Source of the DNA: Bacteroidaceae bacterium
Lineage (GTDB): Bacteria; Bacteroidota; Bacteroidia; Bacteroidales; Barnesiellaceae_A
Assembly (NCBI GenBank): GCA_017532725.1
Contig: JAFXIZ010000072.1
Coordinates: forward strand, 9,956-73,955
Length of the DNA: 64,000 bases
Reading direction: 5' to 3'
Positions 7,075-64,000 of the stretch are shown here, in pieces (the stretch's first letter is position 1; each line of letters starts with the position of its first letter). The translations under genes and the position numbers were made by a program. Under the pieces are notes generated by a model. The model was not told the origin of the DNA and did not search any database. It saw nothing but the letters and a program-made list of their open reading frames with translations.

Positions 7075-7122
7075 GTTATGTCGTTGGTTGTAGCCTGTTT
7101 AAAGGGTTGTTGCGATACTGTG

Positions 7123-8610: not shown

Positions 8611-9474
8611 TTACAATCGTATGATGCGAATGCCTGTTGCTGCTTTTTGTGCTGCAAGGTAGTTGTATAGTGGTGCAGTGTCTATTAAGACAGCCTTACC
8701 CTTCGATGATGCGTGTAGCAAGTAGGGGCGTGAGTTCTTTGTTACGATAATTCCCATATGGGTCACATCAAGACCTTTTGTCGATGTGGTTATCAGCACA
8801 ATGTCGCCCTCTTTCAGTTGCTTTTGGGCTGTTGTGCTTGATAATACGTTTGTAGGAATATAGTAGTTGCTGTAAAGTGAGCATTTCTTCTCTATCTCTT
8901 TTATCTCTTGGTAGGCAGTGTCGTTATTGACCAAGGCCGGATAACTGCGACGATGCATCGACATATAATTGATAGACTTTTGCTGCTTGGTGGCACGAGG
9001 AAGTTTGTCGGTCACTTCGTAGAAATTGCCACGCGCCACATTGTCGGCTACCCAATCGCTTGCGTAGTGCAAGCGCGAGGTGTATCCACCGACAATACCG
9101 TTGCGATAGCGTATGTCGCGCAGGTTGTCGATAAAGTCTTGCACTGTAGCCGTGTCGATGGCAGCAGTTTGAGCAAGGGCTATAACATTCTCGACAAAGG
9201 TTGTGCAGTCGAGTTGCGACAGGTTGATGGTGAGTTGTTCGGTATCTCCCTCGAGGGTGGCTGCTTCGTAGGGTGTGCCTATAAATTGCTTGGCTATAAA
9301 TACCACGCGCTCGGCAGGTGTCTTGAGCGAGGCTTTGCGACTCTTATTCAAGATGTCGTTTATAGTGGCTGTATCGGTGGCCTGATGGTGGTAGCGTACG
9401 CTATCGGGGGTGGCTGCTACTGCATTAATGGCTATCGCGATTGTTGCTATAATGCTGAAAATAAACTTCTTCAT
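8611..9474 (-). CDS. secreted DUF1460 family protein (N-acetylmuramoyl-L-alanine amidase-like fold)
   Basis: Signal peptide MKKFIFSIIATIAIAINAVA. FIGTPYEAATLEG...LDCTTFVENVIAL is the characteristic DUF1460 block. Confidence 0.7.
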   Translation of the reverse strand: MKKFIFSIIATIAIAINAVAATPDSVRYHHQATDTATINDILNKSRKASLKTPAERVVFIAKQFIGTPYEAATLEGDTEQLTINLSQLDCTTFVENVIALAQTAAIDTATVQDFIDNLRDIRYRNGIVGGYTSRLHYASDWVADNVARGNFYEVTDKLPRATKQQKSINYMSMHRRSYPALVNNDTAYQEIKEIEKKCSLYSNYYIPTNVLSSTTAQKQLKEGDIVLITTSTKGLDVTHMGIIVTKNSRPYLLHASSKGKAVLIDTAPLYNYLAAQKAATGIRIIRL

Positions 9475-9575
9475 AATTGATATTATAATTATTGTTTTGT
9501 TGTGAGTATGGGAACAAAAGTAATAAAGAATTATGATATTTCAAAGTGAAAAATGGTGTCATAACCCACAAAATA

Positions 9576-11471
9576 CTACGACCTGCCCGAGGGTTGTTGC
9601 GACAATTGTTCCATTGCTTGCATAGCCATTTGCTGCTGCTCGGCATCGATGCGTTGTAACAGTTTGTCGGCAAAGGGGAATGAGCCTGTCTCGAGCAGTG
9701 TAGGCAATGAAATCTGCCCGTTGCGGAAGAGTGCCAACAGAAATTCGTTGGATGACTGACGAAATGCCGGTGCTGTAGCCGATTCGCTGATGACAAGGTC
9801 GAGTTCGGCGTAACGTACCTGTTCGGGAGTAACTTGAGTAAGCAGTACACTATCCTCACCCAATATGCGCTCGTATCGTTGCTCGCTGTAGTATTGTTGA
9901 ATGGTTTTGAGTATCTTGTTGTCGCGCTCTTCTCGGAATGTCTTGAACGACTCGAAGATGTCGAGCAGGTTGGTAGCCGAGTATTGCACTTGCTGTGCGT
10001 ATAGCGATGAGGGTGTGCCACTTGAAACGGCCTTGCCCTGCATAGCACTGTGTACCCCCGATATATCCTCAAGCAGTCGCATCTGCAACGACAGTAGTTC
10101 GTAGGCTCCCACGTTGGTGGCATTGACCGATATTTGTTGGGGTATGGAACTGCCCGGCTTGGGACGGAACAATATCACACCGTTGTAGCGAGTCCACTCC
10201 GATGCAATCTCCTCGAGGGTCATACCGTCGGGTATTTGGTCTTCGGGGAATAACAAGACACCCTTGGCACTGCTACCCATTATAAAGTCTATCATCGTAA
10301 TGAGGCGATTGATGTAGCGTTGTTGGTCGATGACGTCTTCGACAAACGAGTGTACCTCGCCATCGAGCAGTGGATATAGATGAAAGCAGTAGGGGTGTTC
10401 GCCGTGCCAATAGGGTGTTTCGCCCTCGTCGAGTATATCTCCCGTTGGGGCAAAGAATCGGTAGTACCAATAGTGGTCGATAAACCATTCGCTCTCTATC
10501 AGAGGTACTTCGGCTGTGTCGGTACCCTGTTGCGTGGCTTGCGCCATACGTCTTTTATTCTCCTTGTCGATGCTATCCTTTTCCGATAACTCGATTTTGT
10601 AAAAGTCGCCCGTAAGCGTGTCGTGGCAGCGCAATCGCTCGCGCGACTCCAATCGCCACACCTCTATGACGCGACAGCGTTCGGGGGCTGTTGAGGTGAA
10701 GAAGTGCAGTGTGTCTTTATTTTTGCCCGACAGCATATCGTGGCTGCTGTAGCGTGTTTCGTTCGATATATCTCCATAAATTTGTTTCAGCGTTTGTGCT
10801 TTCTCCTCGTTGCCTTGACTGAAACGCGCTACCACATCGGGCAGCGACATATCGTGCAACTCGCCAATCATCGTGCAGTCCCACAACCTGCAATCCTCGA
10901 TGTTGTTGAAGAAGATGCGCGATGGTTGTACGGTATCGATCCACACATCGGTCTTGCCGTGGCGTGTATTGTATCCTATTTTGTGAAAGCACGAGCCCGA
11001 AATGAGGTATTCCTCAAGGGTGCGACTGTCGAGTTCGTTGAGGCGATTGTGCTGATATACATATTGCATAACACTGCTCATCAGTTCGCCCAACTGCTGT
11101 TCGTTACGGTCGCGAGCGATGCAGGTAGGCTCGGTCTGTGCGCTGCGAAATTGCCCGAGTACACTCTTGATGAGTTGTCGTATCAAGTTGTTCTTGAGGG
11201 GTACTTTGCCTTGTTCGCGCAGATAGTGTTCCTCGCTTACAACACGCCCGTCGGGCAGTTCGACGGGGTCGCACCACTGCTTGCCAAACGTGTAGTTGCG
11301 ATTGCGTGTACGTTGTGCGCGATAGTGCGATAGTGCCTCCCACGCCGAGCAGGCCTCTTGCAGTATGGTGTGGTCTTGCTTGCTGAAGTCCGACGCAGCC
11401 TTGCGCTCGGCATTGTCCGATTGTGGCATAAGCCTCTTGCGATTGAATGTGCGATAATCAATGGTGTTCAT
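9576..11471 (-). CDS. phage portal protein homolog (P22/T7-like), solitary
   Basis: 631 aa. N-terminal NYTFGKQW motif followed by NNLIRQLIKSVLGQF. Mid-protein blocks RVIEVWRLE and GEHPYCFHLYPLLDGEVHSFVEDVIDQQRYINRLITMIDF. Gln-rich C-terminal helix. The block order parallels P22 gp1-type portals as I recall them. Confidence 0.65.
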   Translation of the reverse strand: MNTIDYRTFNRKRLMPQSDNAERKAASDFSKQDHTILQEACSAWEALSHYRAQRTRNRNYTFGKQWCDPVELPDGRVVSEEHYLREQGKVPLKNNLIRQLIKSVLGQFRSAQTEPTCIARDRNEQQLGELMSSVMQYVYQHNRLNELDSRTLEEYLISGSCFHKIGYNTRHGKTDVWIDTVQPSRIFFNNIEDCRLWDCTMIGELHDMSLPDVVARFSQGNEEKAQTLKQIYGDISNETRYSSHDMLSGKNKDTLHFFTSTAPERCRVIEVWRLESRERLRCHDTLTGDFYKIELSEKDSIDKENKRRMAQATQQGTDTAEVPLIESEWFIDHYWYYRFFAPTGDILDEGETPYWHGEHPYCFHLYPLLDGEVHSFVEDVIDQQRYINRLITMIDFIMGSSAKGVLLFPEDQIPDGMTLEEIASEWTRYNGVILFRPKPGSSIPQQISVNATNVGAYELLSLQMRLLEDISGVHSAMQGKAVSSGTPSSLYAQQVQYSATNLLDIFESFKTFREERDNKILKTIQQYYSEQRYERILGEDSVLLTQVTPEQVRYAELDLVISESATAPAFRQSSNEFLLALFRNGQISLPTLLETGSFPFADKLLQRIDAEQQQMAMQAMEQLSQQPSGRS

Positions 11472-11572
11472 AGTCGATGTTTTTTTGATGAATATTTTTC
11501 GACCACAAAGTAATTATCGCTGTGCAAGGCGTTGTTGCGATAGAATGAATAATGGCCTTATGGAAACGACAA

Positions 11573-11601
11573 GAGGCTATGCCAAATTTTGGCATAGCCT
11601 C
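11573..11601. terminator. hairpin terminator downstream of the Nif3/Zn-ribbon operon
   Basis: gaggctatgcc-aaatttt-ggcatagcctc, a perfect 11-bp stem. Confidence 0.6.
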
Positions 11602-11728
11602 TCCTGCAATCAAAGATTTTTTTTTGACTTTATCTCTTAAGACCTTATTTCCTGCGATAAGCCACAGTCGAACATCGGTCTTGCTCTATTCTTCAACTAT
11701 TGTTGCAACAATGCAACAGGGTAGTTTC

Positions 11729-55530: not shown

Positions 55531-56231
55531 TTATCCATATTTACTAATGCGTCGCAACTCTTCTTCATTGATAATTATTATTTTGCGACCATCGACAGTG
55601 ATGAGGTTTTCGGTAGCAAATGTAGTGAGCGTGCGAATGGCATTGGAGGTTGTCATGTTTGACAAATTGGCCAAATCTTCTCTCGACAAGTATATGTTGA
55701 GAGTTGTGCTATTGGTTTCATAACCATAGTTTTCGAGAAGAACGATGAGGGCTTCGGCAAGTCGGCCGCGAATATGTTTCTGGGAGAGGTTTACGGTGCG
55801 AGTGTCCGATTGTCCCAAGTAATTGTCAAGACTGCGAATGAAGAAGAAAGCCAGGTCGTTATTGCGGCGCACATGATCTTCGACAATGGTCATGGGCAAG
55901 AAGCCAATCTGTGTGTTCTCTATGGCAGCGCTCGATGTAACATAGTTTTCGTTGGCAAAGTAGGTACGGTTGCCAAAGTATTGCCCCGGACGCACCATGC
56001 GAATGCTCTGGTTGCGGTTGCCATTGCTTTTTTGTATACCTTCACCTTGCCTTTGAGCAAAAACATAAGGTGCGTGGGCTTTTCGCCCTCGCTATATATA
56101 ACCTCATTTTTGCGGAAGTTCTGAATCTGAAAATTGCTTGATATGATTCGTTTCTCTTCGTTACTCAATACAGCCCAAAAGTCGGACATCTCATTTTGCA
56201 ACACAGATTCTAAAGTGCTCTCTTTTACCAT
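55531..56231 (-). pseudogene. Crp/Fnr family transcriptional regulator interrupted by a -1/+2 frameshift in an A6 tract
   Basis: ORFs 55920-56231 (cNMP-binding N-terminus ...KGKVKVYKK) and 55531-55998 (...SIRMVRPGQYFG... plus the C-terminal HTH). They join into one normal-length Crp/Fnr protein if the A run at 56028-56033 had 7 A. Confidence 0.8.
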
Positions 56232-56255
56232 TTGTACCTATTTCATTAGCGGGCA

Positions 56256-56263
56256 CAAAAGTA
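56256..56263 (-). promoter_or_regulatory. -7 box TACTTTTG for the Crp/Fnr gene
   Basis: Exact TAnnTTTG match 25 nt upstream of the ATG at 56231. Confidence 0.5.
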
Positions 56264-56440
56264 GCGAAAAAAAATGATATGAATAAAAATTTATATCCAC
56301 AAAAATGCTTTTCAACATAATTTTAGGACATAGTTTTATAGCATAGTCTTTATATGGCAGTGATGTTGACAAAATAGAGTAGAGAGGTTGGTTGCTTGCG
56401 ACACCTCGTCACATGCTATTACACAAAATACAAACTCAAC

Positions 56441-56650
56441 CATCTTTAATTCATAGGTGGCTTGTTTTTCGATAGCCTCTGTAGCAAACAATCCTGCTTT
56501 CCATTCGGCTGGTGAGCATTCTCCAATGGTAAGATATTTTCTACATTCTCTATTTAAGCGAATGTATAATTCAATTTTTCCTTTTCCACTCTTGTTCGTG
56601 TTCGCTTTCTTCTTTCGGTCGAACACTACCGATACATAGTTCTGCGTCAT
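56441..56650 (-). pseudogene. N-terminal fragment (Arm DNA-binding domain) of a tyrosine integrase
   Basis: MTQNYVSVVFDRKKKANTNKSGKGKIELYIRLNRECRKYLTIGECSPAEWKA fits the Bacteroidetes integrase arm-domain pattern (V.V.F...G.G.I.L.I..NR...T.....P.EW). The frame degenerates and stops after about 70-100 aa, with no SAM-like or catalytic domain. Confidence 0.55.
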
Positions 56651-56749
56651 AGCTTTTTCCTGTTGTGGACACAGAAAGACAACTTCAACAAAGATTAACT
56701 ATTTTCCACCCCAATTTTGCTCGTTTTTGACCGATTTTCCCTCTTTTGC

Positions 56750-57107
56750 TTACCTACCACTTTCAAAAGTGGTAGGTAAAAGTGGCAAAAAGTGGTAGGT
56801 AAGTGTCTTTTTCAGTCTTTGGCTGTCTCGCTCTGTCCTCGTTAGACTTTTACCTTGACTACTTTCTTAAATGCCTATGTATCAATGTGATAATCGTTAG
56901 TTCTATTTCGTTTGGAGCAAAAAAAAGGAGTTCGTGTGAACTCCTTTTCGTGATCCGCCTGGAGTAACTTCAATTTGATGACCAAATCAACGATAGGAAC
57001 TCACTTATATCTTTAGCTACTAAGAAGTAGTCAATTCATTTTAATGATCTCGTTTTTGCTTCCATTTTTGTGGTAGATAATGGAAAAATCCTTAGGTGGT
57101 AGGTAAG
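56750..57107. repeat. cluster of GTGGTAG(G/A)TAA motifs, including a 14-bp perfect inverted repeat
   Basis: TTACCTACCACTTT-ca-AAAGTGGTAGGTAA (56750-56779). Direct copies at 56789-56802 and 57096-57107. A one-mismatch copy at 57070-57080. Partial copies at 56780-56786 and about 57176-57183. Confidence 0.8.
56919..56946 (-). terminator. strong rho-independent terminator (minus strand)
   Basis: aaggagttc-gtgt-gaactcctt, followed on the minus strand by a T run (A8 at 56919-56926 on the plus strand, partly shared with the stem). Confidence 0.7.
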
Positions 57108-57183
57108 CAATTTCTTGCTTTTAGGCTCATTTCAGTTGATTGTTAAGGGGTGTTAATATATTAACGTGTATTTCCCACTTACC
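56919..57183 (-). ncRNA. candidate ~265-nt noncoding transcript or long structured 3' UTR of the repressor mRNA
   Basis: -7 box TAACTTTG on the minus strand (57190-57197) just after the repressor stop. No ORF longer than 12 codons. Ends at the terminator at 56919-56946. Confidence 0.3.
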
Positions 57184-57208
57184 AACTAACAAAGTTAATA
57201 CAAAAAAA

Positions 57209-57820
57209 TTATATCATCGGTATTCTGCCGTGAAATATTACACGGTATATACTTATCACATTCTCTTTTCTTATCTTGAACGGTTCGTAATCTGCATTGT
57301 CTGATGTCAATGTGATGTACGGACTATTTGCTTTGCCAAGTTCAATGTGTTTCAGCATACGTTCATTATCCCTTGTTATTATTAAATATATGTGCTTCGC
57401 TTTAATTTCCTCGAAATTGTCTATCTCAACTACTCCAACAAGGTCGCCCTCTTGGATTGTCGGGTACATCGAAAATCCTTTAACCGGGAAGAATGCGTCT
57501 GCATCTACTCCTGGAATGTAAATACGCTGTGGCTTCGCTGTGGTGTTGGCAAACTCGATTCGCCCTGCACTTACTTCCAATTCCTTATAGAAGAGATTTG
57601 TTCCCTTTGGAAACATATTACCTTCTCCGAAAAACAGCCACCTTTCAGAAAGGTTATCACAAACTGATAATATTTGTGTCTTAGCTGCTGCCGGTATAGA
57701 GTTGCGGCTTATCCAGTTGGCTACTGCCGACTGACGAACGCCTAATAGCTTTGCAAAAGCTACCTGACTACCGCCAAACTCCTTTATTAGAGCCAAAACC
57801 CTATCTTTTTCTGATACCAT
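57209..57820 (-). CDS. CI/LexA-type repressor (XRE HTH + S24 peptidase domain)
   Basis: HTH SQVAFAKLLGVRQSAVANWISR. S24 nucleophile block VKGFSMYPTIQEGDLVGV and a downstream Lys (ERMLKHI). Confidence 0.85.
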   Translation of the reverse strand: MVSEKDRVLALIKEFGGSQVAFAKLLGVRQSAVANWISRNSIPAAAKTQILSVCDNLSERWLFFGEGNMFPKGTNLFYKELEVSAGRIEFANTTAKPQRIYIPGVDADAFFPVKGFSMYPTIQEGDLVGVVEIDNFEEIKAKHIYLIITRDNERMLKHIELGKANSPYITLTSDNADYEPFKIRKENVISIYRVIFHGRIPMI

Positions 57821-57867
57821 TGTACATATTTTTTTTCGCTTGATGAAAAATTTTTTATCGCTAATAC

Positions 57868-57899
57868 TTTGTTTTGTATCACAAGGTGTGATAACTTTG
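57868..57899 (+). promoter_or_regulatory. rightward early promoter (TTTG-N20-TAACTTTG)
   Basis: -33 TTTG at 57868-57871 and -7 TAACTTTG at 57892-57899, in the divergent intergenic region. Confidence 0.5.
57877..57893. promoter_or_regulatory. candidate operator palindrome TATCACA-agg-TGTGATA
   Basis: Perfect 7-bp arms that occupy the promoter spacer and touch the -7 box. Confidence 0.5.
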
Positions 57900-58020
57900 C
57901 ACTATCAAACTAACCGACTAAGTTAGTTTTATAATCACAGATAAGTTGCGAAAGCGTTCTCATCAAAGAGTTTCACAACGCAAAATTAGCGACTTTTCTC
58001 CATATAACAAAATATTTACA

Positions 58021-58266
58021 ATGAAAAATAGAACCAACGACGAAGATTTTGCGCATATCCGCAAATTAACACACTCCCAAGTATTATGGCTTATTGCCAA
58101 TTATCACAACTTGACGAATGAAGAGTGTGCTGAACGCTTAAACCTTAAGCCGAAAACCTTAATAAACTACGCTTTTAAGCTTGATTTGAGAAAGTCGCCT
58201 GAACATATTTCAAGACTTCGCAAGCAACAAGCGATTAACACAAATAAGAAAAGATGGAAAAAGTAA
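58021..58266 (+). CDS. small HTH protein (Cro/early regulator-like)
   Basis: 81 aa with probable HTH LTNEECAERLNLKPKTLINYA. First gene divergent from the repressor. ATG at 58021 chosen over the TTG at 57946. Confidence 0.55.
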   Translation: MKNRTNDEDFAHIRKLTHSQVLWLIANYHNLTNEECAERLNLKPKTLINYAFKLDLRKSPEHISRLRKQQAINTNKKRWKK

Positions 58267-58478
58267 AATGTAAAATCGAATGGCTACGAAGTCTCAAACG
58301 TGGAGAATCTAAAGTCGGACAGTTCGACTCTCCTAAAGAATGCCATACTCTTTCTACTATTATCGCACGATATAATGTAGAGGAAGGTCGCTACCAGGGA
58401 ATTAAAATATCGGCTGTTTACAACAAGGCCGAAAGTCAAGTAACTATTACAGCGAATAAGATTCCTGTTTGTAAGTAA
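58254..58478 (+). CDS. hypothetical protein
   Basis: 74 aa. 13-nt overlap with the upstream gene suggests translational coupling. Confidence 0.45.
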   Translation: MEKVKCKIEWLRSLKRGESKVGQFDSPKECHTLSTIIARYNVEEGRYQGIKISAVYNKAESQVTITANKIPVCK

Positions 58479-58497
58479 CACTTAAACATTCTAAACT

Positions 58498-58728
58498 ATG
58501 AATATTCTTCGCTCGGCAGACATTAAGGCTATCGCTAAACAGGTAGCTCATGAAATGAACGAATTAAGCGACAAACTGCTTAATGTTCAAAATGTGGCTG
58601 AAATGCTCGGTAAAACTGAGGGTGCTGTTTCTAAGATGTGTCAGCGTGGGCAGTTGCCACACCACAAACACCACGGCGCAATCTATTTCAGCCAAAGAGA
58701 ATTGGAAAACTACCTATTAAATAAATAG
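58498..58728 (+). CDS. excisionase-type helix-turn-helix protein (HTH_17/MerR-like)
   Basis: LLNVQNVAEMLGKTEGAVSKMCQRGQLPHHKHHGAIYFSQRELENYL matches the excisionase-family DNA-binding pattern. Confidence 0.65.
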   Translation: MNILRSADIKAIAKQVAHEMNELSDKLLNVQNVAEMLGKTEGAVSKMCQRGQLPHHKHHGAIYFSQRELENYLLNK

Positions 58729-58767
58729 GTATCAATGTAATAATCTCGTAAATGTGTTTTTCATGGT

Positions 58768-58808
58768 CCATTCGGTTAATCCGTGAGGACAAGCCGAATG
58801 GCTTTTTT
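58768..58808 (+). terminator. intrinsic terminator between the early and replication genes
   Basis: ccattcgg...ccgaatgg stem followed by cttttttaa. Confidence 0.6.
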
Positions 58809-58831
58809 AATCTCTAAAATTTCTATTTCGT

Positions 58832-59074
58832 ATGGACTCAATATTAAACTACCTGCTCGGTAAGAGCAAACGAGTAAGCATCATGTTTGATGCCGAAGTG
58901 TCAAGATGGACGGCTATAATCGGTCTTATCTGTTCTCCGACATTCTTCTTTGCCGGAATATCTGTGGAAAACGAACACGGACTTTTGGTCTATGCACTGC
59001 TATTCTATGGTGCAGCTGTCCTAATGTTCATTCCTTTCTTAATCGAAGTATCTAAAACATCTAAATTTGAATAA
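58832..59074 (+). CDS. small membrane protein (2 TM)
   Basis: Two hydrophobic helices (WTAIIGLICSPTFFFAGI and LLVYALLFYGAAVLMFIPFLI). Confidence 0.45.
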   Translation: MDSILNYLLGKSKRVSIMFDAEVSRWTAIIGLICSPTFFFAGISVENEHGLLVYALLFYGAAVLMFIPFLIEVSKTSKFE

Positions 59075-59276
59075 TATGGAAGAGAGACAAATCGCTTTAG
59101 CTCCTAAACTTTACAAGGAACTCCTAACAGTTGTGTATAACCACAACTTACCTATCAATATCCAAGTGCAAAAGAACGAGGGACGATTGAAAATGCTTAC
59201 CCTCTCTTATGACGAGAGAGATGAAAAGCTTATTGATTGGATAATCGAAAGAGTCGAAAACATTGACTACCTATAA
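59067..59276 (+). CDS. hypothetical protein
   Basis: 69 aa. 8-nt overlap with the upstream ORF; tightly packed with the primase gene. Confidence 0.45.
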   Translation: MNNMEERQIALAPKLYKELLTVVYNHNLPINIQVQKNEGRLKMLTLSYDERDEKLIDWIIERVENIDYL

Positions 59277-59282
59277 ACTGAA

Positions 59283-62105
59283 ATGATAACCGTAGAAAAA
59301 CTTTATGCCGCTACTCATGGTGGACTGGATATTATCCTTTACTACTATCCACAAGCACAAGAGGTAGTCGGCACGAAAAATAAGTTTAGGGCAAGGCCGA
59401 GCGAGAAAACGGCTTCGGCTTGCCTACGGCTATCGGGCGATGTTTGGAAAGTGGTTGACTTCGGCGACGACGGACACGCCATGTCGCCTATCGACATCTG
59501 CATGAAAGAGGAAAACATCACTCACTTCTACGAAGCGGTTCTTCATCTTGCTCGCATTTTCAATGTGCAAGATGAATTGAATCGCTCGATAAACAAGCCT
59601 CGTATCGAAAAACGCCGTGCCAACGCTGATGAGAAAGAGGGAACAAAGGTGTTCTCTTTCCTAAATTCAATTCCGGACGCACACCTAAAGGTGCTGGGCC
59701 CGAAAGTGAAGCGTGAGCATGCTGAAGCTCTTAACTGGCACGAGGCTGAATACATCGGCTATGTTAAGGACGGAGAAGTGACGCTGAAATACTCTACCGA
59801 TGATTATCCTATACTTATGCGTGAATGTCGCACGGAAGACAACAAGGTCTTCTATAAGATATACGAACCACTTAACCCCGAAAAGCAATGGCGTTTCTCT
59901 TACACTCCTGAGGGTGTAAAGCCTAAGAACTTTATCAATGGCTTACGAGAACTGCAAGAATTGTTCGGTAAACTTAACGCCCAAGCCGATGATGAAGAGG
60001 ACGCTCCGGCTCGTGAACAGAAAATCGACGAAGTGATTATTTGTTCAGGAGAGCGTGACGCTCTATGCTGTCGCTCCATGGGCTATCAGCCTATATGGTT
60101 CAACTCTGAAACATACCAGGTTACTGAAGAGGATATAAATCTGCTTTTTCGCTACGCTAAAGTTATTTATAACATTCCCGATATTGATAGCACAGGCGTG
60201 AAGAAAGGCACGGAATTGGCTCTTCGGCACATTGATGTATATACCATTTGGCTACCCGAATGGCTATCTACTTTTCGTGACAATCGTGGCAAACCTCGAA
60301 AGGATCTGCGCGATTGGCAAGAAATGCGTCGTGACATCAATGACTTCCGTGACCTTCTCAAAATGGCTCTCCCTGCCAAGTTTTGGACGGAGACAGTGAA
60401 TGAGAAATCGGGTAAGAAAGAAATAACTATCAGTGCTGTTCGCCTATATTATTTCCTTCAACTCAATGGCTTTAGAACGCTCCGTGATATTAACGCTGCC
60501 AATACTCGCTACATTCAGGTTACTAATAATGTCGTGAAGCAAATCAAGGCGAAAGATGTTCGCCGTTTCGTGCGTGAATGGAGCGAAGAGCGTTGCTTGA
60601 ACGAGAATGTGCGAAATCTCATAGTGAACTCGATGAAGTTTTCTGAAACATCACTTGAAAACTTGAAAGAAGTGGAACTCGATTTCTCTAATTTTACGCA
60701 TAACACACAGCTGTTCTTCTTCCCGAATAACAATGTGGAAGTTACGCCTAAAGAGATTATCGTTCATCAGCGTGGAGATACTGCGTTCAATCACTATGTG
60801 TGGGAAGAGAATGTGCTGAAGCACAATTTTAAGCCATTGCCCGATATGTTCAAGCTAACGTGCTTAGACAAGGAAAATAACCTCTATGATATTGATGTCT
60901 TGGACTGCATGTCAAGCCCAATTTTCGGCTATGTCATCAACACAAGCCGGCTGCACTGGCGTAAGGAAATGGAAGAGCGATTTGAAGACAATCCCGAAGA
61001 GGCAAAAGCCTATGCTGAAAAGCACCGTTTTTGCATCAATGGAGAGGGATTGACTGAAGATGAAATCCGTGAGCAGAAGCAGAATCTTGCCAACAAGATT
61101 TTTGCTATCGGATATATGCTTCATCGCTTCAAATCTCCCTCGCGTGCATGGGCTCCACAAGCTATGGATAACAAAATCGGTGAGAATGGCGAATGTAATG
61201 GTCGCAGTGGTAAGTCGTTCCTTTTCAAAACACTTTCGCTGTTTATGAAATCGGTAAAACTTTCGGGGCGTAATCCTAAACTAATGGATAATCCCCACGT
61301 TTTTGACCAAGTTAATGTGCATACCGATTTTGTACTTGTCGATGACTGCGCTCAATATCTCTCAATGGGGCTGTTCTATGATATTATTACTTCGGATATG
61401 ACTATCAACCCGAAGAATAATCAGTCGTACTCTATTCCGTTTGAGCAAAGCCCAAAGTTTGCGTTTACAACGAACTATGTTCCGGCCGACTTTGACGCTT
61501 CGACGGAAGCTCGCTTGCTCTACATGGTGTTCTCTGACTATTACCACCAGCAGACGGAATCGAACGACTACATAGAAACACGCTCTATTCGTGACGATTT
61601 CAATCGTGACCTCTACACTGCCGACTATCCTGAAAAGGATTGGAATGCCGATATAAATTTCTTACTGCAATGCCTACGCTTCTACTTGTCATTGTGCGAA
61701 AGCAATGTGAAGATTTATCCACCTATGGATAATATCATTCAAAGAAAATATCGTCAAGACCTCGGCAATAACTTCGAGGATTGGGCTGACTCTTACTTCG
61801 CAGAGGGTTCGAGCAACCTTGACAAACTACTGATTCGTCGTGAAGTCTTTGAGACATATCGCAATTATGCGAATGTGAAAGGCCTGACTATGCAGTCATT
61901 CACAAAGAAATTGCGTGCATACTGCTGTTTATGCCCACATATTGCCGAACTAAATCCGACTGATATGTGCAACACACAAAATCGCATATCTCGACGAATT
62001 GAGGGTGTTATGGAAGATATGATTTATGTCAAGGCAGCTCCCAAAAAGGAAGAAGAGCCACCTAAAAAAGATAATAAACTTGTAGATGTTGAACTCCCAT
62101 TTTAA
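59283..62105 (+). CDS. bifunctional primase-helicase (Toprim domain + P-loop NTPase, P4/D5/VirE-like)
   Basis: Toprim Glu (CSGERDAL) and DxD (IPDIDSTG). Walker A GECNGRSGKSFLF and Walker B FVLVDD; 940 aa. Confidence 0.85.
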   Translation: MITVEKLYAATHGGLDIILYYYPQAQEVVGTKNKFRARPSEKTASACLRLSGDVWKVVDFGDDGHAMSPIDICMKEENITHFYEAVLHLARIFNVQDELNRSINKPRIEKRRANADEKEGTKVFSFLNSIPDAHLKVLGPKVKREHAEALNWHEAEYIGYVKDGEVTLKYSTDDYPILMRECRTEDNKVFYKIYEPLNPEKQWRFSYTPEGVKPKNFINGLRELQELFGKLNAQADDEEDAPAREQKIDEVIICSGERDALCCRSMGYQPIWFNSETYQVTEEDINLLFRYAKVIYNIPDIDSTGVKKGTELALRHIDVYTIWLPEWLSTFRDNRGKPRKDLRDWQEMRRDINDFRDLLKMALPAKFWTETVNEKSGKKEITISAVRLYYFLQLNGFRTLRDINAANTRYIQVTNNVVKQIKAKDVRRFVREWSEERCLNENVRNLIVNSMKFSETSLENLKEVELDFSNFTHNTQLFFFPNNNVEVTPKEIIVHQRGDTAFNHYVWEENVLKHNFKPLPDMFKLTCLDKENNLYDIDVLDCMSSPIFGYVINTSRLHWRKEMEERFEDNPEEAKAYAEKHRFCINGEGLTEDEIREQKQNLANKIFAIGYMLHRFKSPSRAWAPQAMDNKIGENGECNGRSGKSFLFKTLSLFMKSVKLSGRNPKLMDNPHVFDQVNVHTDFVLVDDCAQYLSMGLFYDIITSDMTINPKNNQSYSIPFEQSPKFAFTTNYVPADFDASTEARLLYMVFSDYYHQQTESNDYIETRSIRDDFNRDLYTADYPEKDWNADINFLLQCLRFYLSLCESNVKIYPPMDNIIQRKYRQDLGNNFEDWADSYFAEGSSNLDKLLIRREVFETYRNYANVKGLTMQSFTKKLRAYCCLCPHIAELNPTDMCNTQNRISRRIEGVMEDMIYVKAAPKKEEEPPKKDNKLVDVELPF

Positions 62106-62109
62106 AGCT

Positions 62110-62445
62110 ATGAACGAAGAAATGAGAGCTAAACTGCATGCTTTCCGCATGGAAGATTTTAATATCCTCTATCGTGAGAATGAGGAGTTCAAGGAATATG
62201 CTCTTAAGGTGTATGAGTATTGTTGCCGTATGAAAGCCGGCACTTGCATAAACCTTACTCGCTATTCCGGGCAGAAGCTGGACTGGACTCTGCTAACCAT
62301 TGCAGCGTTCTATTGTTCGGGTGCTAACCATATCGAGTATTACATCACTGATGACTATACTCGCTTTGCAAGAAAGGTCTATGATCCTGTGCAGCTGCAA
62401 AAGGACATTGACGCTTATCTTAACTTCAGGAATCAAAAAAAGTAA
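62110..62445 (+). CDS. hypothetical protein
   Basis: 111 aa. The ATG at 62110 lies 5 nt after the primase-helicase stop. Confidence 0.45.
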   Translation: MNEEMRAKLHAFRMEDFNILYRENEEFKEYALKVYEYCCRMKAGTCINLTRYSGQKLDWTLLTIAAFYCSGANHIEYYITDDYTRFARKVYDPVQLQKDIDAYLNFRNQKK

Positions 62446-62557
62446 CATAGTCAGTAAAAAAGTTGGTAAAAGTGTTGAATGGCTTCGTTGTGAAACGCGG
62501 CCATTTTTTGTGGGGCAAGGTTTCGGCTTAATCTTATTATCTTATTTTTGTACTAAT

Positions 62558-62808
62558 ACTTTGTATCTTTGTATCAAATAAGAAAATAAGAATGTAAATA
62601 TCTTATAATAAATAAGATAGATAAGATACAAAAGTGATACTAATCTGATACAAATCACTTGCTTGATTTTTTTGTATCACTCCGTCGCCCCCCTTGTTTC
62701 TTCCGTTTAGTTTTGTATCATACTTTGTTTCAAGTTTGTGTCAAAAATAACGCTCTATTATATAGGACTTTAATACCCCTTTGACACAATGATACAAAGA
62801 TACAAAGT
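62558..62808. repeat. iteron/inverted-repeat region (candidate replication origin or multi-operator)
   Basis: Perfect 19-bp inverted repeat ACTTTGTATCTTTGTATCA (62558-62576) / TGATACAAAGATACAAAGT (62790-62808). Eight TTGTATC/GATACAA copies in total. 49-bp AT-rich stretch at 62576-62624. Confidence 0.7.
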
Positions 62809-62900
62809 TTTTTAACCTTATTACTTGGTAAGGTTCGGGAGTGTTTAAGGCACTCGAAAAGTAGTGTCGCTAACTCTCTATTTTTCTGCCGTTTGTGTCG

Positions 62901-62908
62901 TAACTTTG
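62901..62908 (+). promoter_or_regulatory. -7 box TAACTTTG
   Basis: Exact TAnnTTTG match 22 nt upstream of the ATG at 62930. Confidence 0.5.
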
Positions 62909-62929
62909 TATATAAACATAGTTCTATTT

Positions 62930-63478
62930 ATGAGTAATATTTGCGTTTATCTACAAAACATCGAACCTTATCTTAAGCAATGGTTCATTCACGAACATGG
63001 GGGCGAATACCCGGTGTCACTGGTGCGTGGCTCAGTTGAAAGTTGTATGCTCAAACAATTCATCGAAAAACGGAATCAAGAGGAAGCTGCAAACATCGAC
63101 GAGAGAACGCTGGCGATATATATCCCAACTTTCAAGGATAAAGACCCTCGCACTTACTTCTATCTGCCTGATAGAGCAAAGGTGGCTTTGCACAAATGTA
63201 TCAAAAATCGCTTTGACATACAGATGTGGCAAGACCTACATCAGTTCAGCAATCTCGGTTTGCAGATTGATGATATTATCTATGCGTGGATGGAACAGCA
63301 CGGCATAGAACTATCAGAAATGAATTGGAACGCGATAGCCAAAAGGTATCAGCGTAAAAGAAGAGGATATCTTGACTACGAATTGAAAAAAATTAAACGA
63401 CTTCAGAGCAAAAAAGTTACCAAGTCCGTAATGTCCGTAAATTCCGTAATGTCCGTAAATCAGGACTCCGAAGATTAA
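62930..63478 (+). CDS. hypothetical protein
   Basis: 182 aa starting MSNICVYLQNIEPYLKQWFIHEHGG..., with a basic C-terminal part. Start set after the promoter. Confidence 0.5.
   Translation: MSNICVYLQNIEPYLKQWFIHEHGGEYPVSLVRGSVESCMLKQFIEKRNQEEAANIDERTLAIYIPTFKDKDPRTYFYLPDRAKVALHKCIKNRFDIQMWQDLHQFSNLGLQIDDIIYAWMEQHGIELSEMNWNAIAKRYQRKRRGYLDYELKKIKRLQSKKVTKSVMSVNSVMSVNQDSED
63425..63460 (+). repeat. in-frame 18-bp tandem duplication (4 x 9-bp sub-repeat)
   Basis: tccgtaatgtccgtaaat x2, encoding SVMSVNSVMSVN near the C-terminus of the ORF. Confidence 0.85.
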
Positions 63479-63495
63479 CCTTTTAATTGTTTGCT

Positions 63496-63921
63496 ATGGA
63501 AAACTTCAATCACTCATTACCGGGTATCGCACAAATCGGCTACTGCCTCTGCGAGAATATTCAGCCCAACATCGTTCTCAAACATTCATCGGGCATTCCT
63601 GTCGGCATCTTCACTGAGATTACGCCTGTTCACTTCTTCGGTCAGCCGTCATACGAAGCCGTAGAGGAATACGACAACAATGGGCGTAAGGTGCTTTGCA
63701 CGCTTAAATTTGTATCAAACGACAACATTCCACTTCATAAACACCTCGCTTTCGTAATCACGGACGCGTCGGGAACTTCCGTTATCATCGGCTCTCGTGA
63801 ACGACCGTACCCTGTCGTCAAATCTTCTGCCACAAGTGGCAATCCTTCAGGTGAATCTAATGCCAATACCTACGAAATTAAGTGGTCATCGGTTGGTATG
63901 CCTATTTGTTGTGCCATATAA
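63496..63921 (+). CDS. hypothetical protein
   Basis: 141 aa; ATG at 63496 preferred over the TTG at 63487. No recognisable motif. Confidence 0.45.
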   Translation: MENFNHSLPGIAQIGYCLCENIQPNIVLKHSSGIPVGIFTEITPVHFFGQPSYEAVEEYDNNGRKVLCTLKFVSNDNIPLHKHLAFVITDASGTSVIIGSRERPYPVVKSSATSGNPSGESNANTYEIKWSSVGMPICCAI

Positions 63922-63961
63922 AGCAGTATCACTTTCTTCTTTTTATTCATAGTTCTCTTGT

Positions 63962-63995
63962 GGTCGAGCAGTGATTTCATTGCTTGACCTTTTTT
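63962..63995 (+). terminator. rho-independent terminator
   Basis: ggtcgagca...tgcttgacc followed by a T6 run. Confidence 0.6.
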
Positions 63996-64000
63996 GTTAT

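Follow-up and report, generated by a model that had tools for sequence, protein, structure and literature searches.

A stretch of 64,000 nt from the genome of a Bacteroidaceae bacterium (GTDB Barnesiellaceae_A; GenBank assembly GCA_017532725.1, contig JAFXIZ010000072.1, positions 9,956 to 73,955 of the forward strand), hereafter the window, carries among housekeeping genes an intact gene for a 631-aa phage portal protein of the P22 type. As judged from comparison of sequences, this portal is probably (roughly 60%) one dispersed member of an ancient set of head and DNA-packaging genes that stem from a phage and have been passed on vertically, which would be controlled as a regulon and would resemble a gene transfer agent (GTA). 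It is very likely that the gene has been domesticated and is under selection; it is inherited vertically under strong purifying selection, like a core gene. The portal probably acts together with a major capsid protein (MCP), the large terminase (TerL) and other partners, which relatives of the window's host encode at loci scattered over the chromosome behind a common, specialized promoter.

Identity and inheritance of the portal gene

The portal matches Pfam PF16510 (P22_portal) over nearly the full profile (E = 9.9e-46; residues 43-627 on profile positions 7-573 of 594), its 156.9 bits lying far above the gathering cut-off of 26.1, and the same family is matched by 37 of 37 diverse portal relatives. 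PHROG_156 (portal) is matched at 6.5e-80, and the solved portal 8jov is reached in the PDB by phmmer at 1e-11 and by the portal family profile at 1e-20. An AlphaFold2 model from a 13-sequence alignment was discarded (predicted local distance difference test, pLDDT, 45); the model used, from 70 sequences, has a pLDDT of 70 and a predicted template-modelling score (pTM) of 0.62, with the stem/tunnel region at pLDDT 45-60. When this model is compared with the PDB by Foldseek, the top 50 matches are all podovirus portals (E 1e-19 to 1e-9, TM <=0.60), including Pan3, GP4, KHP30, Pam1, crAss001, P22, Sf6, VP1, N4, and SU10. The P22-type identity, which an earlier reading of the letters alone (the sequence-only reading) had proposed and had wished to see checked at the level of fold, is thus borne out, and the peptide blocks quoted in its favor are all present in the translation and fall on columns that are invariant among the aligned family members. 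The protein is full length, including the C-terminal helical region, which is kept throughout the window's clade, and a reading of its translation reveals neither a signal peptide nor a membrane segment. The gene is predicted to encode a functional portal protein. What sets it apart from P22 gp1 and other PF16510 proteins is its position outside any phage genome and its identity of only about 11-17% to solved portals.

The gene and its co-directional neighbor, a secreted amidase-like gene 101 nt away, are present as the sequence-only reading had described them, flanked by aldehyde dehydrogenase (ALDH) and UvrD-like helicase genes on one side and by Zn-ribbon (CT398-like), Nif3, and aspartyl-tRNA synthetase genes on the other. 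Likewise, the GC content of the portal gene equals that of its surroundings, and the portal is the sole phage-structural gene in the window. Neither profile hidden Markov models of 25 partner and phage families (E<=1) nor tblastn found any further member of these families in the 64 kb, no att-like repeats flank the portal, and scans of the window with Rfam and for tRNAs gave no match.

Among databases, more than 7,000 proteins match the window portal, many of them on chromosome-scale contigs. A scan with one genome per species returned 306 relatives, and the best 80 of these 306 were examined by clustering of their neighbors and by a portal tree (all trees being neighbor-joining trees on p-distances). 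Three groups emerge. The first is a chromosomal clade that is monophyletic and whose portals share 54-79% identity with that of the window; its hosts are Barnesiella, Coprobacter, Ca. Caccoplasma, Ca. Gallibacteroides, and metagenome-assembled genomes (MAGs) labeled Bacteroidaceae or Bacteroidales; the second is a sister chromosomal clade in Muribaculaceae (41-47%); and true phages and prophages, such as those of Segatella copri and Bacteroides phage BS-TP4, fall outside both (36-46%). Synteny groups coincide with sub-clades of the chromosomal clade. The locus with which the window groups (L050, 78-80%) shares with it the upstream Nif3 gene and the downstream run of amidase, ALDH, and UvrD genes, a run that follows the portal in about 10 further species. 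In Barnesiella viscericola DSM 18177 (3.08 Mb), a 63%-identical ortholog likewise stands alone, between an outer-membrane protein (OMP) gene and genes for ferritin and an H+-translocating pyrophosphatase.

The ratio of nonsynonymous to synonymous substitutions (dN/dS, estimated by the Nei-Gojobori method, with dS saturated for the most distant pairs) is 0.03-0.09 for the portal when 15 pairs of genomes are compared, at a dS comparable to that of the core genes beside it. The reading frame of the gene is unbroken in 45 of the 47 species genomes of the chromosomal clade, and its divergence tracks that of its neighbors: identities between the window and L050 are 0.79 for the portal, 0.83 for ALDH, and 0.84 for UvrD, and those between the window and L003 are 0.70, 0.74, and 0.79, respectively. 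Selection rather than decay, as the sequence-only reading had suspected, is what these values show.

A plain prophage remnant drifting to loss, or a piece of an active prophage, would also be phage-derived and isolated, and a prophage edge related to phage BT-TP2 does lie at 56-64 kb of the window. Against this stand the intact frame, a dN/dS below 0.1, dS values saturated between genera, an orthologous core position across species, and the lack of flanking repeats and of partner genes in the 64 kb. Close relatives carry no complete prophage at this position; their orthologous loci are flanked by core genes. Nor is the chromosomal clade found among the 2.9 million viral contigs of IMG/VR, where the closest portal is 54-55% identical and the best matches belong to phages of 35-59 kb with a giant protein of about 3,300 aa preceding the portal. 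The edge at 56-64 kb was rejected as a source of partners, since BT-TP2-like phages belong to another phage family, give no match when searched with the window portal, and are separated from it here by 45 kb of core genes. The remnant explanation is effectively refuted, and the phylogeny, matched as it is by synteny, argues against recent horizontal spread.

The Muribaculaceae sister clade (L058-L082) has its own arrangement: among core genes, such as mutS, c38, MCP, c3, and the portal form a compact operon (c38-MCP-c3-portal), where c-numbers denote families of neighboring genes. Its portals are shorter at the C-terminus (460-494 aa), dN/dS is 0.03-0.06, and the clade has the same promoter box of the TATCGCA type; no terminase lies within 10 kb of the operon at these loci.

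Partner families and their common promoter

The sequence-only reading had taken the portal to be kept alone. This finds no support in the clade, where other loci conserve MCP, scaffold, TerL, c1, c3, and c6/c23 genes that come from the same lineage of phages. Family c2 is an SU10-type MCP (PF17236, 2.6e-53), c8 is TerL (phrog_2, 7e-20), c29 occupies the scaffold position, c3 and c101 are small head-module proteins, and c1 is an 870-aa protein with a weak match to virion structural proteins. The arrangement varies from one lineage to another. Divergent from the portal, c1 lies between sufBCDS and rplU-rpmA-lysS in 23 loci; TerL-c57 and c6-c58 modules are four genes from the portal in five species (TerL near the portal: L019, L022, L025, L034, and L042); Barnesiella has c17-c6-c22-c23 near the portal; and in Ca. 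Caccoplasma-like genomes the order c3-c101-MCP-scaffold-(OMP)-c1/portal is still contiguous. A search with the MCP found 2,820 relatives of 56-99% identity in the same taxa, on contigs of up to 3 Mb, with a scaffold-MCP-c101-X-c3 operon conserved between core genes (pepP/ligA, fumarase/mutS2, phosphofructokinase, and others); no portal or terminase occurs within 10 kb in the MCP-operon contexts examined. Dispersal within a single genome is seen in a cultured isolate, Coprobacter tertius GCA_024330105.1: c1 and the portal follow sufBCDS on JANDHW010000011, and the MCP operon follows fumarase on JANDHW010000018. In a Gallibacteroides-like species, the MCP operon extends to a 1,159-aa tail/receptor-binding-like protein (phrog_1330, 4e-22), a holin-like protein, and an M15 endolysin (phrog_894, 2e-31). 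Of the genes that a particle would need, those for head and packaging are present, and the receptor-binding-like protein, holin, and endolysin were seen in one lineage only.

In this Gallibacteroides-like species (L092-L096, 3100-21400), the fumarase gene is flanked by c57/c6/k64/c23 on one side and by the operon running from scaffold and MCP to holin and endolysin on the other, which illustrates how core genes are interleaved with domesticated ones.

The partners are constrained as well. Their dN/dS values are 0.009-0.06 for MCP, 0.06-0.07 for TerL, 0.04 for the scaffold, 0.04-0.12 for c6, 0.05-0.22 for c1, 0.07-0.24 for c3, and 0.15-0.29 for c23, and the trees of MCP, TerL, and c1 mirror that of the portal. 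TerL keeps a Walker-A-like KARQWGGST and shares 108 near-invariant columns with phage TerLs, its ATPase and nuclease motifs being intact, which argues for DNA packaging. No integrase, replication, or recombination gene stands beside any chromosomal module in the Pfam-annotated contexts.

The closest true phages are the temperate Bacteroides phages BS-TP4, BKO1-TP3, and BF1-TP2 (PMC12694917), the closest in GenBank by portal (41-46% identity), together with S. copri prophages. They have homologs of gp1, a gp3 domain, TerL, scaffold, MCP, c101, c3, and c1, in an order that resembles the chromosomal modules (TerL, then scaffold-MCP-c101-c3-(portal)); ten chromosomal families have counterparts in BS-TP4 (gp1, gp3, gp4, gp7, gp9-13, and gp26), and c23 is homologous to one domain of the giant protein encoded ahead of the phage portals. 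These phages, however, are contiguous genomes of 64-68 kb with an integrase, replication genes, a diversity-generating retroelement, and giant proteins of 2,600-5,400 aa, whereas the window portal has none of these features nearby and belongs to a separate clade that tracks its hosts. Two GenBank annotations of BS-TP4 differ from the identities found here: gp7 (L088, 20340-22436), named a tail spike protein, is a homolog of the large terminase (TerL family profile, 1.9e-205), and gp11, named a DUF2951 domain-containing protein, is an SU10-type MCP.

What would tie the scattered modules together is their promoter. When the upstream regions are aligned, all modules prove to have an ordinary -7 box of the Bacteroidetes type (TnnnTTTG) in front of them, and in place of the usual -33 TTTG there is a lineage-specific box 21-23 nt upstream of the -7 box (Table 1). 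The near-consensus -7 box that the sequence-only reading saw before the portal is indeed there, and the full pattern in the window, TATCGCA-N22-TTACTTTG, is the only composite match in the whole stretch. The same architecture precedes the portal in eight other species of the window's group (group A) and the scaffold-MCP operon in L083 and L181. In group A, TATCGCA-N22-T[TC]nCTTTG occurs 11 times in 287 kb, nine times before the portal and twice before the MCP operon, with identical spacing throughout (dinucleotide-shuffle mean, 0.04); the 42 kb of C. tertius contain three composite matches, located upstream of the portal, of c1, and of the MCP operon, versus none in shuffles; and 14 of the 20 matches in the L019 group precede the portal, c1, TerL, or c6. 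In all groups together, only two composite matches precede any other gene. Such a shared promoter with a lineage-specific box would imply a dedicated activator or sigma-like factor that evolves together with its box. Real phages have an analogous arrangement, yet with another box, before the scaffold gene, which suggests that a phage late-gene activator may have been retained and has co-evolved with its site.

A gene-transfer-agent-like model and its alternatives

The clade exhibits two of the features by which GTAs are recognized: phage-derived structural and packaging genes sit in the chromosome without integration or replication functions (the window itself showing the portal only), and they are inherited vertically under purifying selection across the host clade. 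Coordinated regulation may be a third, in that a specialized promoter is shared by the portal, c1, TerL, c6, and the MCP operon. A plausible history begins with the ancient acquisition of a podovirus-like temperate phage, related to BS-TP4, BKO1-TP3, and BF1-TP2, by a Bacteroidales lineage that would comprise Barnesiella, Coprobacter, Ca. Caccoplasma, Ca. Gallibacteroides, and MAGs akin to these that are labeled 'Bacteroidaceae'; Muribaculaceae have a sister set, and domestication perhaps preceded the split between the Barnesiellaceae-like lineage and Muribaculaceae. The retained set would consist of scaffold, SU10-type MCP, c101, and c3, c1 divergent with the portal, TerL with c57, c6 with c22 or c58, and c23, to which some lineages would add the receptor-binding-like protein, holin, and M15 endolysin. 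Genome rearrangements would then have scattered the modules among core genes, leaving the portal entirely on its own in the window's lineage, and the modules would be held together in trans by the specialized promoter and its dedicated factor. On induction, scaffold, MCP, and a portal dodecamer would nucleate procapsids, TerL would dock on the portal and package DNA, proteins of the c3, c1, and c23 types would close and arm the portal vertex, and lysis would release the particles. That such predicted particles transfer host DNA is a possibility somewhat short of even odds. Equally tentative is the fuller proposal that the portal is a component of the first GTA-like system in Bacteroidota, derived from a podovirus, domesticated before the Barnesiellaceae-like radiation, scattered to single-gene loci, and unified by a transcription factor of its own, with a promoter box that evolves along with it in each lineage.

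Two known systems provide points of comparison. GTAs of the RcGTA type in Alphaproteobacteria (Rhodobacter capsulatus) are likewise multilocus sets of chromosomal, phage-derived head and packaging genes, vertically inherited under purifying selection, with no integration or replication genes beside them and with a common regulatory input implied. They stem, however, from a siphovirus-like HK97 lineage, whereas a podovirus-like Bacteroides lineage with a P22-type portal and an SU10-type MCP is seen here, pointing to an independent origin in another phylum; moreover, the dispersal in Bacteroidales is far more extreme, down to lone single genes in an arrangement that differs per lineage, and the system is known from its genes alone. 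FpGTA of Faecalibacterium (PMC12946183) is similar in that a podovirus-like set of TerL, portal, scaffold, and MCP is maintained throughout a genus or family of commensals of the gut, but it forms one contiguous operon of 10.5 kb in Bacillota and has packaging evidence from long reads of virus-like particles (VLPs), in contrast to the scattered genes of a Bacteroidota host described here. In recent studies that sequenced VLPs, the GTA-like packaging reported concerns Ruminococcaceae and Oscillospiraceae rather than Bacteroidota (PMC12946183; bioRxiv 10.64898/2026.07.08.737213).

Several points weigh against a GTA-like system. Genes for the tail tube, adaptor, nozzle, and TerS were not recognized among the chromosomal module genes. 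Families c1, c3, c6, and c23 have no relatives of solved structure or in Pfam; profiles of c1, c3, and c23 returned nothing useful from PDB sequences, and Pfam and PHROG offered no function for c3, c6, c17, c22, c57, and c58. The promoter patterns were derived from the same sequences in which they were counted, so that conservation at orthologous promoters is not independent evidence and only the sharing between non-homologous modules is. The proposed link of the window portal to the MCP operons of L083 and L181 draws on the promoter box, tree position, and study series: in the window's lineage, a comparison of NCBI accessions and assembly identifiers placed portal and MCP in different MAGs, of the same study series only, and when the L026 portal was sought together with an MCP on a Mb-scale contig, its exact representative was found only on a contig of 3.6 kb. 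Partner genes in the window's own genome are accordingly predicted from the clade, the box, and the tree. Finally, no published GTA, particles, or domesticated capsid genes were found for Bacteroidales, Barnesiellaceae, or Muribaculaceae, in a literature coverage that is incomplete, so that prior work may exist.

The same conservation, dispersal, and co-regulation would be expected of a capsid-like particle made for another purpose, such as a carrier of protein or RNA, programmed lysis with release of extracellular DNA, or components lent to or stolen by phages or satellites, and the derivation of c23 from giant virion proteins of phages fits such a particle. The conserved TerL with its intact catalytic motifs speaks instead for DNA packaging, as does a portal that is full length down to its C-terminal helical region in the window's clade, and a different purpose is unlikely. 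It has also to be considered that the chromosomal head genes, the portal included, might act as decoys that poison or mis-assemble incoming phages of the BS-TP4 type and so exclude superinfection. Related temperate phages are common and infect Bacteroidales, the MAGs of L045 and L055 carry a second, phage-type portal locus besides the chromosomal portal, and a decoy could act as one gene, in keeping with the solitary position. Such a function would, however, not need the joint conservation of TerL catalytic motifs, scaffold, c3, c1, and lysis genes, or a common promoter of late type; the divergence of 40-55% from known phage portals makes co-assembly less likely; and a defense system was set aside when PADLOC gave no match for the portal, amidase, c1, TerL, or MCP. 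Superinfection exclusion by decoy is accordingly a decidedly improbable explanation.

In the mammalian gut, Bacteroidales are dominant and their exchange of genes is intense, by routes that are known to include conjugative elements and phages; a description of a GTA was found for no member of the phylum. If the GTA-like model is correct, abundant gut commensals (Barnesiellaceae-like bacteria and Muribaculaceae) would possess a way of exchanging DNA under the control of the host, or a further use for a capsid, and an extreme case of a domesticated virus that is fragmented yet maintained. Given that predictors of prophages and GTAs seek gene clusters, a dispersed system of this kind would escape them. 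The lineage-specific box offers a direct handle on the regulator and on all members of the regulon, and since C. tertius, C. fastidiosus, and B. viscericola DSM 18177 are in culture, the question is immediately testable.

The neighboring amidase and further features of the window

The co-directional neighbor of the portal belongs, as the sequence-only reading had supposed, to the AmiA-like (DUF1460) family (PF07313, 5e-50) and starts with a signal-like sequence. From this pairing came the suggestion that the portal had been recruited by itself, as a dodecameric channel working with the amidase in the cell wall or envelope, independently of any capsid. The two genes do lie close together with no predicted terminator between them, capsid and terminase genes are wanting in the 64 kb, and some 10 group-A loci in the scan retain the adjacency. 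This adjacency is, however, confined to the window's sub-clade and not, as had been asked, a constant position between DUF1460 and Nif3: in the close relatives L007, L008, and L038 the portal is followed directly by ALDH, all other lineages have different neighbors, and the portal is equally conserved there. The amidase diverges much faster than the portal (identities of 49-61% versus 67-79%) and has an ordinary -7 box of its own, conserved in group A as aaaaaaatagtgTATTTTTGttc, with the special module box absent at the right spacing. On account of this restricted adjacency, faster divergence, and separate promoter, the pairing is regarded as positional. The portal's lack of a signal peptide or membrane segment and the conservation of partner head genes that have the portal's promoter further count against a channel, which is very improbable; the amidase is probably not part of the portal system, and a role for it as a lysis enzyme, though conceivable, has no support.

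Table 1. Positions of the portal, its neighbor, and other features in the window, with the promoter boxes of related groups.
Feature	Position	Strand	Remarks
Portal protein gene, P22-type, 631 aa, intact	9576..11471	-	Pfam, PHROG, fold, clade and selection data
Secreted AmiA-like/DUF1460 (NlpC/P60-like) amidase gene, 287 aa	8611..9474	-	Pfam PF07313; co-directional neighbor of portal
Composite portal promoter	11506..11542	-	-33-region box TATCGCA (11542-11536), 22-nt spacer, -7 box
-7 box of portal, TTACTTTG	11513-11506	-	Bacteroidetes-type; ~35 nt upstream of portal ATG
-7 box of amidase, TACTTTTG	9515..9522	-	Consensus; ~41 nt upstream of amidase ATG
Hairpin, perfect 15-bp stem, then U-rich tail	11572..11602	-	-26.8 kcal/mol, z=-5.3
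Prophage-edge example open reading frame	57209-57820	-	Inside window 56000-64000
Prophage-edge example open reading frame	59283-62105	+	Inside window 56000-64000
Promoter box, window's group and Muribaculaceae			TATCGCA
Promoter box, Coprobacter			TATC(G/A)CA (TATCRCA)
Promoter box, Barnesiella-type			TGCCAYRA
Promoter box, L019 group			TTKATAAA..CNCA
Promoter box, Gallibacteroides group			TTTATAACA
Promoter box, Caccoplasma group			TTTTACCA/TTATAACA

The terminator hairpin reported 5' of the portal is confirmed and sits directly after the Zn-ribbon gene. It likely serves the Nif3/Zn-ribbon operon upstream as an intrinsic terminator and would shield the portal promoter from read-through.

Parts of the portal promoter recur nearby. 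Three copies of TCGCAACAAC lie on one strand within 4.5 kb (7106-7117, 9591-9602, and 11531-11542, all on the minus strand), more than chance predicts; those beyond the portal promoter lack counterparts in the genomes of relatives. From the portal promoter, the 12-mer TATCGCAACAAC is found again just upstream of the UvrD-like gene, and TCGCAACAACCC at the 3' end of the portal frame. The UvrD-like gene was set aside as a regulon member because its 12-mer is not conserved in relatives, and, likewise for want of conservation, the degenerate copy of the box that overlaps the portal stop codon was rejected as a driver of the amidase. In several group-A genomes, a small HTH_3 (XRE-type) gene stands two genes upstream of the portal (L182, 775-1068), between a PIF1/RecD-like helicase gene and an Omp85 gene; the flank in the window has no such gene.

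The right end of the window (56000-64000) is low in GC and resembles the edge of a prophage or mobile element. It encodes a CI/LexA-like repressor (helix-turn-helix plus Peptidase_S24) and a 940-aa DUF5906 primase-like protein with 59% identity to that of the temperate Bacteroides phage BT-TP2.

The second, phage-type portals of the two group-A MAGs mentioned above, L045 (JAGBHF01, the MAG of L005) and L055 (JAFZDG01, the MAG of L037), are 47-50% identical to the window portal and lie on short contigs beside c1, TerL, or c6, the c1 and TerL copies falling outside the chromosomal clade; they probably represent a related prophage or a phage contig binned with the MAG. Phage or portal contigs of Bacteroidales type have also been binned to unrelated taxa, namely L057 to a Methanolobus MAG, L046 to an Oscillospiraceae MAG, and L052 to a Clostridium MAG, and these are likely mis-binned phage or Bacteroidales contigs.

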